DNA of 64,000 bases from the NCBI GenBank assembly GCA_050258375.1, contig JBLMYQ010000068.1:27913-91912 (forward strand). The letters run 5' to 3'. Positions 18,338-50,174 of the stretch are shown one piece after another. The notes below the pieces were generated by a model. It did not search any database. It was not told where the DNA came from and worked only from the letters and a program-made list of their open reading frames with translations. Source of the DNA: Deltaproteobacteria bacterium (GTDB lineage Bacteria; Bacillota; Clostridia; Acetivibrionales; UBA4821). Numbering within the stretch: the stretch's first letter is position 1; every line of letters starts with the position of its first letter. The position numbers and the translations under genes are program-made.

Positions 18338-20218
18338 TTATTTCAAAGGCAGCCTGACTTTAAAAACCTTCATCCATCTTCCAAGTGAAATAATTCTCCA
18401 AATGGTGAAATCAATTTTTGCATTTTCTTTAAGCAATCTATCAAACCACTCCAAGACCTTTTCTTTATTTATAATCCCATTTAAATAATCACATGCATCA
18501 GCAAGCTCTTCTCTGAATCTCCCGCTATTCTCTTTTATCCAAACCTCTTCCGGTGTTACAAAGCCCATTTTATCAGCTCGGTTTTTTATTGCATCAGGTA
18601 AACCTCCTGTCATTGCTTCCCTCAAGACATCTTTTGTAACCCCATTTCTGATTTTAAACTCGGCATCTAAGCCCAATACGAATTCAACAAGCCTATGGTC
18701 TAAGAATGGTACTCTGGATTCAATCGAATGCGCCATGGAGTTTCTGTCTTCATAGTGCAGAAGCATTGGCAAGCTGCTGAATTCAAGCTGATTTACAGAA
18801 TAATTTTCAACTGAATTGATTTTATAGCTATATAATCTTTTAAAGTAATCCTTATGATACTTCCTGTTTAATATAATCCAGTCAAAGTCCGTCTTGCTTA
18901 GCTTGGTTTTTAAGAAAGCCTTTATATATTCAGAAACCATAAACTTTGATACTGATATAAAAATATCGCGGTTAGAATAGCCATGAATTTTTTTTAATGA
19001 TTTTGCTTCCTTATAGAAGGTTATAAATCTGAATCTTTTTAGGAGACTGCTTAAAAAAACTCCAAAAAATCCGTTGTAACCTGCCAGCTGCTCATCTGCT
19101 CCTTGTCCGTCAAGCATAACCGTTATTTCTTTTTCTTTCGCCATTTTAAAAACATTCCATTGAGCAAAAATACTGGTTGACCCAAAAGGCTCATCCTGCT
19201 GATAGGTTATTTCATCAAGGTTAGCAAACAAATCTTCGAATTTTGGGAACACCTTATGTGAAACCACATTTGTTGACTTTACTACCTCATCAATAAATTT
19301 CTGTTCGTCATATCTTTTATCTTCAAAGCAAGAGGAAACAGTTTCCTGCTGTATTTTTTCATTCTTTTCTTTAAGGATATTATTGGCAAGGCAAACTATT
19401 GAGGAGCTGTCCAAGCCTCCGGATAAACATGAACCAACCTTTACGTCTGAACGGAGATGAAGCTTGATTGAATCAGAAAACCTACTTAAAAACTCTGCAG
19501 AGGCTTCTTCAAAATCACTTTTATTACTCTCTTTTTTTGAATCCAATTTATAATAATCCTGTATTACCAAAGAATGGCTTTTTAAGTCATATATCAGATT
19601 GTGCCCGGCTTTTAGCTGGTAAACCCCGTCAAACAACGTTTCTTCAGTGTGGTCAAATATTCCGAAGGATAAAAAGTCTAAAACTCTGTTAATATTTGCA
19701 GTTGGAGCCCAGTTCTTGCTCGTTGTAAATTGCTTGATTTCAGAGCCAAATGAAAAAGTATCTAAATCATCAAAGTAATAGAAAGGCTTTATTCCAAATC
19801 TATCCCGTGAGCAGAAGAGCTGACTTTTTTCTTTATCATAAATACAAAAAGCCCACATTCCAACAAAGTGACTGACGCAGTCAAATCCCCATTTGTCATA
19901 AGCTGCAAGGATTACCTCTGTATCCGAGGTTGATTTGAAGGAGCAGCCTTGCTGAATTAGCTCTGATTTTAGTTCGAGGTAGTTATAGACTTCTCCGTTG
20001 TAAGTAATTATGTACTTATCAAGGTAGGACATGGGCTGGCTTCCGTCTTCGGTAAGGTCAAGGATTGAAAGCCGCCTGTGACCCAAAGCAAAATTAGCCC
20101 CATGATAATACCCAAATCCATCCGGTCCTCTATGGGTTATTATATCTGTCATTCGGACTATAGCGTCTTTGGCGACAGGCATATTATTTTTGTTTATTAT
20201 TCCCGCTATACCACACAT
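18338..20218 (-). CDS. asnB: Asparagine synthetase B-type glutamine amidotransferase, paralog 1 (subfamily I)
   Basis: 626 aa. MCGIAG Ntn-Cys2, GHRRLSILD, PP-loop SGGLDSS, QDEPFGSTSIFAQW, MLDGQGADE. Confidence 0.85.
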   Translation of the reverse strand: MCGIAGIINKNNMPVAKDAIVRMTDIITHRGPDGFGYYHGANFALGHRRLSILDLTEDGSQPMSYLDKYIITYNGEVYNYLELKSELIQQGCSFKSTSDTEVILAAYDKWGFDCVSHFVGMWAFCIYDKEKSQLFCSRDRFGIKPFYYFDDLDTFSFGSEIKQFTTSKNWAPTANINRVLDFLSFGIFDHTEETLFDGVYQLKAGHNLIYDLKSHSLVIQDYYKLDSKKESNKSDFEEASAEFLSRFSDSIKLHLRSDVKVGSCLSGGLDSSSIVCLANNILKEKNEKIQQETVSSCFEDKRYDEQKFIDEVVKSTNVVSHKVFPKFEDLFANLDEITYQQDEPFGSTSIFAQWNVFKMAKEKEITVMLDGQGADEQLAGYNGFFGVFLSSLLKRFRFITFYKEAKSLKKIHGYSNRDIFISVSKFMVSEYIKAFLKTKLSKTDFDWIILNRKYHKDYFKRLYSYKINSVENYSVNQLEFSSLPMLLHYEDRNSMAHSIESRVPFLDHRLVEFVLGLDAEFKIRNGVTKDVLREAMTGGLPDAIKNRADKMGFVTPEEVWIKENSGRFREELADACDYLNGIINKEKVLEWFDRLLKENAKIDFTIWRIISLGRWMKVFKVRLPLK

Positions 20219-20269
20219 TAGTAATCTCCTGACTTTTACTATTAACCAAATAGCTTTTACCTTGGTCTT

Positions 20270-20626
20270 TTACTTTATATCTTGCGTAATAATTATGTCT
20301 GCCTGAGTATCTAAAATATTTTTAACTACTATTTGCCCTATACATAAAGGAGGCTTTAAAACTATATTCTTTAATTCATCAACTACATCCTTCGCAAGCT
20401 CTTTAGGTATAGGTTTGTTACTTTTGACACTGACCAAAGGCATCTTTGAATTTAAAACCTTTATTGTTGTTGTCACTACCCTTTCTGGCTTTGTTATTTC
20501 CTTTTCTGCATATGCTTTTCCTCTACTGCATAAAGCATTTTCAATACTTTCAATCTTTTCCTGTGAATGCTCAATATCCATATTACAACTATTCGGACAT
20601 CCTATGCAAGTAAGTTGAATTTTCAT
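20270..20626 (-). CDS. DUF1667-family small Cys-rich protein
   Basis: MKIQLTCIGCPNSCNMDIE... Start set at the ATG at 20626 (GGAGGA SD). Third member of the conserved FAD-oxidoreductase trio. Confidence 0.75.
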   Translation of the reverse strand: MKIQLTCIGCPNSCNMDIEHSQEKIESIENALCSRGKAYAEKEITKPERVVTTTIKVLNSKMPLVSVKSNKPIPKELAKDVVDELKNIVLKPPLCIGQIVVKNILDTQADIIITQDIK

Positions 20627-48286: not shown

Positions 48287-48290
48287 TTCA

Positions 48291-50174
48291 TCACCCTAAA
48301 ATAAATTTTTTACACCAAATTTCGAAGTTCAATAATGACCAAATAAGTAGTCTTCTATTTTGTTTGCCCTCTAAATGTTGATTTAACAATGTCTTAATTG
48401 CTGCAAAATCCATAAAATTATAAATGTTTGCATTCTTATCAAGTAGTATTCTTTTAATATATTCTATACTTTCTCCCCTAAACCATGATGCATCAGGCGC
48501 TGAAAACCCTTGTTTTTTACCCTCCGCAATTTCTGGGGGAATGAACTTGCTCATTGCTTCCCTAAACAAAAGCTTACCATCTTTTGTTTTATTGTAATAA
48601 TTTGTTGTTTTAGGTCCTGGATCATTTTCATTCAAACTTATGATTTCAGTTAAATTTTTAAGCTTAAATCTTGCTGGTACTTTCATAGCAAAATCAACAA
48701 GGTCATTATCTAAAAACGGCACTCTTGTTTCTAGACTATGTGCCATACTTAATTTATCTTCTATAATAAGTAATCCATGAAGAAACGTCTTAGATTCAAA
48801 GTATAATGAATGATTTACATAATCTTCAGGTCTTGTTAACTCATGAGCATACGTTTGAAATACGCTTTTAAATATATCTCTTGTAGAAACATGACTAATC
48901 TTTCTCCAAACAGGACTAAATACATCTGCTGTAATATCACTGGGAATTAATCTCTGCCAAAAATTATAGTAATTATCTATATAATCTTCAAAATTATCGT
49001 TAGATATTGCCGTATAATAGCGCCAAGGATATCCAGCGAATAATTCATCTCCACCAGTTCCAGACAATACAACCTTTACAAACTTGGATGCAAGCTGGGA
49101 AACATAATAATTAGGATAACTTTGTCCTACTCTTGGTTCCTCAACATGCAAAACCAAATTTGGCATTATTCTTTCCATATCTCCAGCCTTTAACACCATT
49201 TCATAGTGCTCCGTCTTAAATAAAGAAGACATATATTCAGCTTTTTGTCTTTCATCGAATCCTAATTCTAAGCCTGATGCTGAACTGAGATCAAATCCGC
49301 ATGTAAAGGATTTTATATATGGTAATTTACTTGCAGCGATTGCAGTAATAGAACCGGAATCAATACCTCCACTTAAATACGCACCTAATTCTACATCACT
49401 GACTAATTGCCTCTCAACCGCTTGCTTAAATAATCTCTGTAATTCTTCTATATATTCTTCCTTACTGGAATACATTTGATTTTCTTTAAAATCAAAATCC
49501 CAAAAATTTACTAAATTCAACTTGTTTGAATTGTTTTTAATATCAATCTTTGCATAATACCCAGCAGGGAATATGCTCACTCCTTGAAATAAAGTCTTTT
49601 CAGTAAAAATATTTTGAAAAGTAAAATATTCAAGCATACCCTCCAAATCTAAATTCTTTTTAAACTCTGGATGTTGAATTATAACTTTCTGTTCTGACCC
49701 AAAAATAAAACTATTTCCAATGAATGAATAATATAACGGTTTTACCCCATATCTATCTCGTGCTATAAAAAGTTCTTTAGTTTTACTATCCCAAATCACA
49801 AAACAAAACATCCCATTAAAATGTTTAACACAATCAACGCCCCACTGGACATACGAATACAAAATAACTTCTGTGTCTGTTGATGATTTAAATGAATATC
49901 CGATTTTCTCAAGCTCTTTTTTTAACTCTCTAAAGTTATATATTTCTCCATTATAGACAATTGCATACCTTTTGTCAGTTGTAAACATCGGTTGAATACC
50001 CATTTTTGACAAGTCAATTATTGCTAATCGTCTATGTCCTAAGCCTATATGCCCATCAACAAAAAAGCCTTCTCCGTCAGGTCCTCTATGCGCTATTGCT
50101 CTTGTCATTTTTTCTAGTATTTTTATTGAAACAGGCTCATAATTAAAATTAATAATTCCTGCAATACCACACAT
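48291..50174 (-). CDS. asnB: Asparagine synthetase B-type amidotransferase, paralog 4 (subfamily II)
   Basis: 627 aa. MCGIAG, GHRRLAIID, PP-loop SGGIDSG, GTGGDELFAGY, SMAHSLETRVPFLD. Confidence 0.85.
   Translation of the reverse strand: MCGIAGIINFNYEPVSIKILEKMTRAIAHRGPDGEGFFVDGHIGLGHRRLAIIDLSKMGIQPMFTTDKRYAIVYNGEIYNFRELKKELEKIGYSFKSSTDTEVILYSYVQWGVDCVKHFNGMFCFVIWDSKTKELFIARDRYGVKPLYYSFIGNSFIFGSEQKVIIQHPEFKKNLDLEGMLEYFTFQNIFTEKTLFQGVSIFPAGYYAKIDIKNNSNKLNLVNFWDFDFKENQMYSSKEEYIEELQRLFKQAVERQLVSDVELGAYLSGGIDSGSITAIAASKLPYIKSFTCGFDLSSASGLELGFDERQKAEYMSSLFKTEHYEMVLKAGDMERIMPNLVLHVEEPRVGQSYPNYYVSQLASKFVKVVLSGTGGDELFAGYPWRYYTAISNDNFEDYIDNYYNFWQRLIPSDITADVFSPVWRKISHVSTRDIFKSVFQTYAHELTRPEDYVNHSLYFESKTFLHGLLIIEDKLSMAHSLETRVPFLDNDLVDFAMKVPARFKLKNLTEIISLNENDPGPKTTNYYNKTKDGKLLFREAMSKFIPPEIAEGKKQGFSAPDASWFRGESIEYIKRILLDKNANIYNFMDFAAIKTLLNQHLEGKQNRRLLIWSLLNFEIWCKKFILG

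Follow-up and report, generated by a model that had tools for sequence, protein, structure and literature searches.

Why should a single bacterial glycan locus carry four genes for glutamine amidotransferases of the AsnB family? The question is raised by a 64,000-nucleotide stretch of contig JBLMYQ010000068.1 (hereafter the window, by which we mean the whole stretch of DNA analysed), in which four such genes, A1 to A4, lie within a ~55-kb single-strand gene array that is predicted to serve a surface glycan whose export relies on an ABC transporter of the Wzm/Wzt kind. We favour the reading, to which we give a probability of roughly 0.7, that A1 to A4 are glutamine-dependent, uronamide-forming amidotransferases of a glycan locus resembling the Bordetella wbm locus, each predicted to act on a different residue. 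Uronamide formation alters the charge of a surface polymer, and hence its antigenicity, its resistance to complement and its recognition by phages; public annotation makes no difference among these genes, each of which it names 'asparagine synthase'.

Four intact genes in three orthogroups

The four genes are all on the minus strand, as is every called gene of 100 aa or more that does not lie inside a larger open reading frame (ORF): A1 at 18338-20218 (626 aa), A2 at 28634-30538 (634 aa), A3 at 34522-36468 (648 aa) and A4 at 48291-50174 (627 aa). They are intact ORFs at exactly the coordinates reported in an earlier note, which had been made from the sequence alone, and a BLASTP comparison of A1 to A4 with all six-frame ORFs of the window revealed no fifth AsnB-like copy. 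Each combines a GATase_7 domain (PF13537, 146-159 bits) with an Asn_synthase domain (PF00733, 232-309 bits), and scores against TIGR01536 range from 455 to 529 bits (459 for A1) where the curated cut-off is 267; the E-values, at 1e-136 or lower, rule out chance. The motifs quoted in the earlier note are likewise found where it placed them, with MCGI[AT]G at residue 1 and SGG[LI]DS at residues 262-290 in four of four copies, SCLSGGLDSSS, QDEPFGSTSIFAQW and MLDGQGADE restricted to A1 and A3, and GAY[IL]SGGIDS and SMAH[GS]LE[ST]RVPFLD restricted to A2 and A4.

When aligned with E. coli AsnB, all four copies keep Cys1, Arg49, Asn74, Gly75, Glu76, Asp98 and the PP-loop, and across 27 sequences of the A1/A3 type Arg49, Asn74, Gly75, Glu76 and Asp99 (A1 numbering) are invariant, while Cys2 is at least 90% conserved. 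The acceptor side of the enzyme is different. Glu348 of the E. coli protein is replaced by Gln in A1 to A3 and by Thr in A4, the C-terminal acceptor region is poorly alignable, and Lys376, Asp384 and Arg387, which we take to be aspartate-binding in E. coli AsnB, are not conserved in the alignment. Scores against the AsnB equivalog model NF006949 (256.5, 297.6, 234.1 and 295.8 bits for the four copies) miss its cut-off of 499. From the conserved catalytic residues, the replacement of Glu348, the unalignable acceptor region and the missed cut-off, we consider that A1 to A4 are intact and probably active as glutamine-dependent, adenylating amidotransferases, and that aspartate is unlikely to be their acceptor. 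They thus resemble E. coli AsnB (1CT9) in two-domain architecture, Cys1, glutamine-binding residues and PP-loop, but are ~75-95 residues longer and stand in a glycan-synthesis context. The idea that A3 might be disabled by a 24-residue N-terminal insertion was rejected, as many members of the family have insertions in the same loop.

Pairwise identity among the four copies is 30-41%, with 41% between A1 and A3, 36% between A2 and A1 (306 bits) and 33% between A2 and A4 (318 bits) in BLASTP comparisons. A neighbour-joining tree (53 sequences, 572 columns, 100 bootstraps) contains three clades: that of A4 (100% bootstrap support), that of A2 (100%), which takes in Bordetella WbmI and loci L005, L018 and L046 (loci fetched for comparison are cited by such numbers), and a large clade with A1, A3 and WbmC (97%). 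By sequence, the four copies fall into three orthogroups. The earlier note had proposed two subfamilies of two copies each, and had suggested a phylogeny with WbmC and WbmI as a check; with that phylogeny in hand the pairing of A1 with A3 stands, whereas A2 and A4, which occupy separate clades and have no supported joining in the tree, do not form a second pair. A1 belongs to a 99% sub-clade with Firmicute orthologues, including one from Desulfosporosinus (56% identity), and A3 is placed elsewhere within the 97% clade; because the two are in different sub-clades, we rejected a recent local (tandem-type) duplication within the locus as their origin.

Comparison with the individual Bordetella proteins agrees with this grouping. 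A2 matches WbmI over its full length (57% identity, 751 bits, against 303-312 bits for the other three copies), and is its orthologue on the sequence evidence. A1 scores higher with WbmC (35% identity, 382 bits) than with WbmI (311 bits), as does A3 (33%, 352 bits versus 312 bits), and WbmC reaches 234 bits with A2 and 227 bits with A4. Given that identity to WbmC is just 33-35%, the assignment of A1 and A3 to the WbmC type, in different sub-lineages of it, denotes family-level membership and no strict orthology.

The kinship with Bordetella extends to the surroundings of these genes. Using the WbmF sequence, we retrieved the B. bronchiseptica protein together with its contig, and compared the wbm locus with the window by BLASTP. 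Directly downstream of A2 lies a gene for a WbmH/G-like short-chain dehydrogenase/reductase (SDR) of 313 aa (27676-28617), followed by one for a WbmF-like SDR of 348 aa (26616-27662), and the two form a nucleotide-sugar cassette joined to A2. The longer protein is 65% identical to WbmF and has 2pzj as its best PDB match (509 bits), and the shorter is 52% identical to WbmH and 43% to WbmG, with 2q1w (344 bits) and 2pzk (281 bits) as best matches; these structures, 2pzj, 2q1w and 2pzk, are assigned to Bordetella WbmF, WbmH and WbmG (PMC2279256). An 853-aa GT1-family glycosyltransferase encoded between A3 and A2 (31971-34532) is 34% identical over 746 aa to an 866-aa wbm protein, such that the gene order large glycosyltransferase, AsnB, WbmH-type SDR, WbmF-type SDR is common to the window and to Bordetella. 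A WbmD-like protein of 278 aa (25721-26557; 30% to WbmD, E 2e-21) and Wzm (44%) also have Bordetella homologues, and the core of the locus is, as judged from sequence, homologous to the wbm O-antigen locus. The placing of A1 to A4 among glycan-locus amidotransferases of the WbpS and Bordetella wbm kind, as the earlier note had it, is supported by these similarities.

The Bordetella wbm polymer consists of 2,3-diacetamido-2,3-dideoxy-uronic acids and uronamides, and its chain is capped by a 2,3,4-triamino-galacturonamide derivative; the locus holds three glutamine-amidotransferase genes, wbmC, wbmI and wbmZ, all candidates for the formation of L-GalNAc3NAcAN, and amidation of the chain is partial and patternless, the three enzymes being undifferentiated (PMC2615507). 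Even in Bordetella, these genes have stood as undifferentiated candidates since 1999-2009. The window locus is like the wbm locus in its ABC-transporter export, in its WbmI-, WbmH- and WbmF-like neighbours, in its homologues of WbmD, Wzm and the 866-aa protein, and in the presence of several AsnB-like genes (three in Bordetella); there is also a likeness to the variable cap region of wbm in its WbmS-like deacetylase, formyltransferase, FemAB-like protein and methyltransferase. It differs in having four copies rather than three, two of them of the WbmC type, in having two SDR genes rather than three, in lacking a match to WbmE, in its fusion with modules for rhamnose and heptose and with a WbaP-type initiating transferase, and in its host, a spore-forming Firmicute with a surface-layer homology (SLH) protein encoded near the locus as opposed to a proteobacterium with lipopolysaccharide.

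Is a count of four then exceptional? The earlier note held that one copy is common and four unusual, and this overstates the case. Among 44 listed neighbourhoods of at least 20 kb (10 kb either side, with the tandem pair of L018 counted as two), one AsnB-like gene is present in 34, two in nine and three in one, such that 10 of 44 (~23%) hold at least two; Bordetella has three, and Desulfosporosinus has three within 10 kb. Measured in the same way, the window itself would count three copies when centred on A2 and two when centred on A1 or A3. The four copies therefore reflect the size and mosaic nature of the locus more than any new principle, and the locus is an extension of the known wbm design, not a new kind of system; what is new is a spore-former host with an SLH protein near the locus, a second copy of the WbmC type, and the fused rhamnose and heptose modules, which are typical of surface-layer glycan clusters (PMC2943079).

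A characteristic neighbourhood for each type

A4, a member of a highly conserved family, lies in a putative cap-sugar and export cassette. In the direction of transcription the array begins with a GT2 glycosyltransferase gene (minus strand; Pfam/NCBIfam survey), followed by genes for WbpE-, WbpD- and WbpB-like proteins, a UDP-sugar 6-dehydrogenase, an SDR (323 aa), a DegT aminotransferase-family protein (404 aa) and A4 itself. The six genes at 50188-56629 (Pfam, NCBIfam) are predicted to constitute a Wbp-type route to a 2,3-diamino uronic acid. Downstream of A4 is a decoration cassette (41726-48286; Pfam), in the order DegT (344 aa), FemAB-like, formyltransferase, WbmS-like deacetylase (PF22537, 1.9e-68), methyltransferase, a 248-aa protein of unknown function, GNAT and WbqC. 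The pairing of deacetylase and FemAB-like protein matches the logic of VimE/VimA, in which N-2 of GlcNAc3NAcA is modified by a deacetylase together with a FemAB-like aminoacyl transferase (PMC7468200). An export block (36471-41488) comes next, with a second Wzt-like ATPase (40331 to ~41488; ABC_tran), Wzt (39129-40352; ABC_tran, Wzt_C), Wzm (38338-39147; ABC2_membrane), a GT1 glycosyltransferase (37217-38347) and, between the latter and A3, a 228-aa protein without assigned function.

This arrangement recurs in distant bacteria. The best 120 database matches of A4 are all at least 66% identical to it, and come from Nitrospirae, Planctomycetota, Deltaproteobacteria and Peptococcaceae. On a Nitrospirae contig the order is DegT (46%), A4 (67%), methyltransferase, FemAB (51%) and formyltransferase (64%), and onward the 248-aa protein (53%), WbqC (49%), two ATPases and Wzm (51%), while on a Peptococcaceae contig WbpD, WbpE, WbpB, SDR (71%), DegT (48%) and A4 (68%) are followed by methyltransferase, 248-aa protein, formyltransferase and WbqC. 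L086 and L085 retain the order DegT, A4, FemAB, formyltransferase, WbqC, Wzt/Wzm (orthologues 49-64% identical), members of the cassette are also present in L025, L032 and L078, and the 323-aa SDR (71%), the 404-aa DegT protein (45-48%) and A4 are kept together in L032, L085 and L078. On account of this conservation across phyla, we suggest that A4 is part of a mobile module for a decorated amino-uronic acid that travels with the exporter. By analogy, such a module fits a product that is a chain-terminating cap recognised by the C-terminal domain of Wzt.

A2, by contrast with A4, keeps to the SDR genes: its type occurs with both of them in Nitrospiraceae (67%, 71% and 61%) and Hyphomicrobiales, the set of A2 and SDR genes is conserved in L005, L018, L046 and Bordetella, and the SDR adjacency is found likewise in L083. 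SDRs of the WbmF type are widespread in their own right, with 7841 database clusters at E <= 1e-80 and many environmental sequences that are 70-79% identical to the Bordetella enzyme, and the L-GalNAc3NAcA-type pathway is thus far commoner in nature than the Bordetella study suggests.

A1 and A3 are each coupled to a large glycosyltransferase gene. The last 11 nt of A3 are shared with the beginning of the 853-aa GT1 gene, and immediately downstream of A1 is the gene for a 1125-aa, two-domain GT2 and GT1 protein (14789-18166; PF00535 and PF13692). A scan with one genome per species gave at least 80 loci with A1/A3-type genes, which are relatives at 35-46% identity and not the closest ones; among the matches listed they are distributed over many bacterial phyla and methanogens, and 38 of 71 A1/A3-type genes (54%) in the listed loci have a GT4 or GT1 gene as immediate neighbour. 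In Desulfosporosinus fructosivorans (L087), a region of 10 kb has GT4 genes in alternation with three AsnB-like genes, one of the WbmC type, one of the WbmI type (49%) and one an A1 orthologue (56%), the last of which is abutted by a GT4 gene whose product is 59% identical to that of the window (23415-24539; Pfam). Between the GT4 gene and A1 the window has a trio of genes for a DAO and BFD flavoprotein (21884-23356), a Pyr_redox_2 protein (20643-21881) and, directly before A1, a DUF1667 protein (20270-20638; all Pfam), which looks like an insertion, given that GT4 and the A1 orthologue are adjacent in Desulfosporosinus. We presume that the trio is akin to the multi-subunit dehydrogenases with which anaerobes oxidise glycerol-3-phosphate or amines; DAO homologues are also found within the Wbp clusters of L086 and L064.

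Across these comparisons, orthologues of each copy in other phyla are 56-68% identical to it, as against 30-41% for the paralogues within its own locus, and the same AsnB types co-occur in the unrelated loci L005, L018, L025, L032, L078 and L087. Since closer relatives of each copy are found in other phyla than beside it, the copies do not appear to be redundant, and the different conserved cassette of each argues for different substrate residues. The proposal of several chemically distinct amidations is supported as regards different residues. It is not supported as regards amine donors other than glutamine-derived ammonia, for which the sequences offer no support, the glutaminase site being complete in A1 to A4 and throughout the A1/A3 family. 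The association of three orthogroups with three contexts (SDR nucleotide-sugar genes, cap and export genes, and glycosyltransferases) provides a testable partition of WbmC-, WbmI- and A4-type enzymes.

With regard to mechanism, conserved residues suggest that the N-terminal Cys would hydrolyse glutamine and that the ammonia would pass to the PP-loop domain, where the C-6 carboxylate of the sugar would be adenylated with ATP and then converted into a primary amide. Which residue each copy amidates, and at what stage, we infer from gene context. A2 would act with the WbmF/WbmH-type SDR cassette, presumably on the nucleotide sugar of the repeat unit, of the UDP-L-GalNAc3NAcA type. In the A4 module (SDR, 4-aminotransferase, A4, the N-acyl, formyl and methyl decorating enzymes, then Wzt/Wzm), the substrate of A4 may be a diamino- or triamino-uronic acid with heavy N-decoration, which is probably the cap that terminates the chain. 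For A1 and A3, each with its large glycosyltransferase, the substrates would be additional uronic-acid residues, amidated immediately before or immediately after glycosyl transfer.

Alternative readings

Several points weigh against four separate uronamide-forming activities. The wbmC, wbmI and wbmZ genes are themselves just 'candidate' uronamide enzymes even in Bordetella (PMC2615507), and the cluster for the surface-layer (S-layer) glycan of Paenibacillus alvei contains an asparagine-synthase homologue, wsfA (PMC2943079). None of A1 to A4 reaches the cut-off (816.9 bits) of TIGR03108 (eps_aminotran_1), to which WbpS and WbqG are said to belong, with scores of 471.6 bits for A4, 451.4 for A2, 376.0 for A1 and 365.8 for A3; this does not exclude a WbpS-like function, because the cut-off was set for an XrtA/PEP-CTERM equivalog. 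To our knowledge the P. alvei glycan carries no amide, and if so, such genes need leave no detectable uronamide. WbpS, WbqG and WbmZ were not among the best 120 matches in the searches with A1 or A4, and the link of A4 to WbmZ or WbpS is drawn by analogy from gene context, as is the assignment of its module to a cap. A WbmE-type transglutaminase, the periplasmic deamidase of wbm, was not found in the window at E < 1e-5, nor was a Pfam match to Transglut_core, and the glycan of this organism is predicted here from its genes. A WbmE-like transglutaminase-core protein does stand between AsnB-like genes in L087 (5720-6907), and L083 has one as well (11427-12608); some Firmicutes, though not this one, may thus tune their amide content after assembly.

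On the other side, AsnB-like enzymes situated in a glycan locus have precedents in WbpS (P. aeruginosa O6), WbqG (E. coli O121) and PGN_1234 (P. gingivalis), and enzymes of this type convert HexNAcA or diNAc-uronic acids to uronamides, WbpS-type homologues doing so in P. gingivalis and H. pullorum (PMC7468200, PMC6025236). A4 resembles the WbpS type in that it follows dehydrogenase, SDR and aminotransferase genes and in that TIGR03108 is its top NCBIfam match, albeit under the cut-off; its neighbourhood is far richer, with FemAB, formyltransferase, WbqC and methyltransferase, and the likeness is one of context.

A variant that concerns A1 and A3, which we hold only tentatively, is that they are step-specific partners of single glycosyltransferases, amidating the growing lipid-linked chain or providing a checkpoint before its next extension. 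If this were true, a poly-uronamide chain of the Bordetella type would be built by alternating pairs of glycosyltransferase and amidotransferase on a Gram-positive S-layer glycan. A broader departure, which we think unlikely, is that A1 and A3 form no simple primary uronamides at all, and instead employ another nucleophile (an amino acid, a hydroxylamine-type donor or an intramolecular amine) or work on a lipid-linked or polymeric substrate with the adjacent glycosyltransferases. Such chemistries do exist in the AsnB superfamily. The best PDB match of A1 (175 bits) and of A4 (214 bits) is the hydroxyamidotransferase TsnB9 (7ylz), ahead of AsnB, and a lasso-peptide lactam cyclase model is the second-best NCBIfam match of A1 (393 bits, under its cut-off). 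The frequent adjacency of the family to GT4 or GT1 genes, their alternation in Desulfosporosinus and the overlap of the A3 stop with the start of the 853-aa glycosyltransferase gene point the same way, and chain extension by the next glycosyltransferase of H. pullorum requires the amide (PMC6025236). However, the complete glutaminase site of A1, A3 and their family argues for glutamine-derived ammonia as the nucleophile, adjacency to glycosyltransferases is also expected for nucleotide-sugar enzymes, and hydropathy predicts no membrane segment in any of A1 to A4. Lactam-forming relatives of AsnB, so far as we are aware, are without the Cys nucleophile. TsnB9 shows that the fold can take carboxylates other than aspartate, but unlike A1 to A4 it is a secondary-metabolite enzyme, with another acyl acceptor and nitrogen donor, and has no contextual similarity to them. 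A literature search on the AsnB-like threonine-attaching enzyme of methanogen N-glycans (AglU) gave nothing usable.

It is improbable that the four copies are redundant and perform the same amidation on the same substrate, for dosage or robustness. Their domain architecture and catalytic residues are identical, and the partial, patternless amidation by undifferentiated enzymes in Bordetella (PMC2615507) would be compatible with overlapping roles. Yet the copies are less similar to each other than to orthologues in other phyla, they separate into three clades at 97-100% bootstrap and have differing conserved neighbourhoods, and the co-occurrence of the same types in six other loci is what would be expected of non-redundant functions.

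The formation of acetamidino groups, which the earlier note had mentioned for related enzymes, concerns PseA/WbpG-like proteins, which are of another type, each a PP-loop protein that has no N-terminal nucleophile (Ntn) domain of its own and works with HisH/HisF-like partners; A1 to A4 carry their own GATase_7 domain with Cys1, and no HisH/HisF-like ORF turned up in the Pfam survey of the window. Lastly, it is very unlikely that one or more copies is an ordinary asparagine synthetase or a peptidoglycan meso-diaminopimelate amidotransferase (of the B. subtilis AsnB or C. glutamicum LtsA type), for although all four exceed the cut-off of TIGR01536, 'asparagine synthase (glutamine-hydrolyzing)', the very name NCBI gives them, and Firmicutes carry several AsnB paralogues of which some amidate peptidoglycan, the shortfall against NF006949, the altered Glu348 and presumed aspartate-binding positions, the glycan-gene neighbours kept by each orthogroup across phyla, archaea included, and the orthology of A2 with a gene inside the Bordetella O-antigen locus all oppose it.

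The remainder of the locus and its host

Upstream of the array are genes for SpoIID (TIGR02870 equivalog, 362 bits against a cut-off of 235), for a SipL-type SPOCS/LysM protein, after which a terminator-like hairpin is located (58121-58096), and for a protein with three SLH repeats (60903-62924; Pfam), 3 kb from the locus. From these genes (58141-62924) we conclude that the host is an endospore-forming Firmicute; a spore-former with an SLH-protein gene at a distance of 3 kb thus has genes for a wbm-type diamino-uronic acid polymer. The metagenome-assembled genome (proteins MGE53297xx/53298xx, on a 96-kb contig) carries the NCBI label 'Deltaproteobacteria bacterium' despite its sporulation genes, and either this taxonomic label or the binning looks wrong. 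GC content is ~27-38% per 2-kb window.

A link between the glycan and the SLH protein is putative, suggested by their proximity. S-layer glycan (slg) clusters combine Wzm/Wzt with a WbaP-type transferase and Rml genes, and that of P. alvei includes wsfA (PMC2943079). The present locus resembles the slg clusters of G. stearothermophilus and P. alvei in its WbaP-type transferase, Rml genes, Wzm/Wzt and multidomain glycosyltransferases, as well as in the nearby SLH protein and the presence of an AsnB homologue in the cluster. It differs in being far larger, in its wbm-type diamino-uronic acid genes, and in the absence from the window of a Pfam match to a Wzy_C-type O-oligosaccharyltransferase.

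At its low-coordinate end (2997-14782), the array holds a set of heptose-nucleotide genes (HAD phosphatase, nucleotidyltransferase, SIS isomerase and GHMP kinase; 11938-14782), RmlABCD (4474-8679), a WbaP-type initiating transferase (Bac_transf; 2997-4421), all recognised by Pfam, and two GT2 genes; in the direction of transcription it ends with the WbaP-type transferase, then a nucleotidyltransferase and a phosphohexomutase. The nucleotide-heptose set looks complete and shares the gene array with RmlABCD, and we take the two together to resemble the rhamnose and heptose S-layer glycan clusters of the Aneurinibacillus type. The locus may encode an adaptor joined to a uronamide polymer, or two separate glycans. 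Between the heptose and Rml genes is that of a 719-aa protein (9719-11878), in which hydropathy indicates ~11 transmembrane segments and a soluble C-terminal domain of ~250 aa; it matched no Pfam family and had no homologue in any fetched locus, and is a candidate for a GT-C-type transferase, an oligosaccharyltransferase or a ligase for the finished glycan.

Elsewhere in the array, a UDP-GlcNAc-type 2-epimerase (24552-25661; PF02350 363 bits, TIGR00236 338 bits) is encoded next to the WbmD-like protein. A 434-aa protein without a Pfam family (30563-31867), encoded between the 853-aa glycosyltransferase and A2, corresponds by homology to a domain that both large Bordetella wbm proteins contain (866 and 878 aa; L083 786-6078). 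It has homologues in eight fetched loci, including two Bordetella loci, and other loci have as many as three copies (L015, L063). This uncharacterised module recurs in loci for wbm-type polymers.

A search of Rfam found no RNA family in the window. Promoter-like sites were not enriched (107, compared with 95.6 +/- 10.4 in shuffles), and for this reason operon boundaries were not drawn from them. Near the edge of the window, a minus-strand ORF of the UDP-glucose/GDP-mannose dehydrogenase family (62994-63923) retains, if read from its listed start, just the final third of its N-terminal NAD-binding domain (Pfam positions 134-185 of 187). Either the gene is disrupted or its true start is farther upstream, where plus-strand ORFs overlap. 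The second Wzt-like ATPase is unusual in its start. Its frame is open from ~41503, and its Walker A motif (GKNGVGKST) is upstream of the first ATG, GTG or TTG (41227); a Shine-Dalgarno-like AGGAAGAGG is followed after 8 nt by ATA at 41488-41486, which suggests a non-canonical start codon or a lost start. The gene is preceded by an AT-rich intergenic gap of ~240 nt (500 nt when counted from the TTG start) with a promoter-like site at 41624-41595. In L086, where the two-ATPase arrangement is kept, its homologue is a full ABC ATPase of 387 aa.

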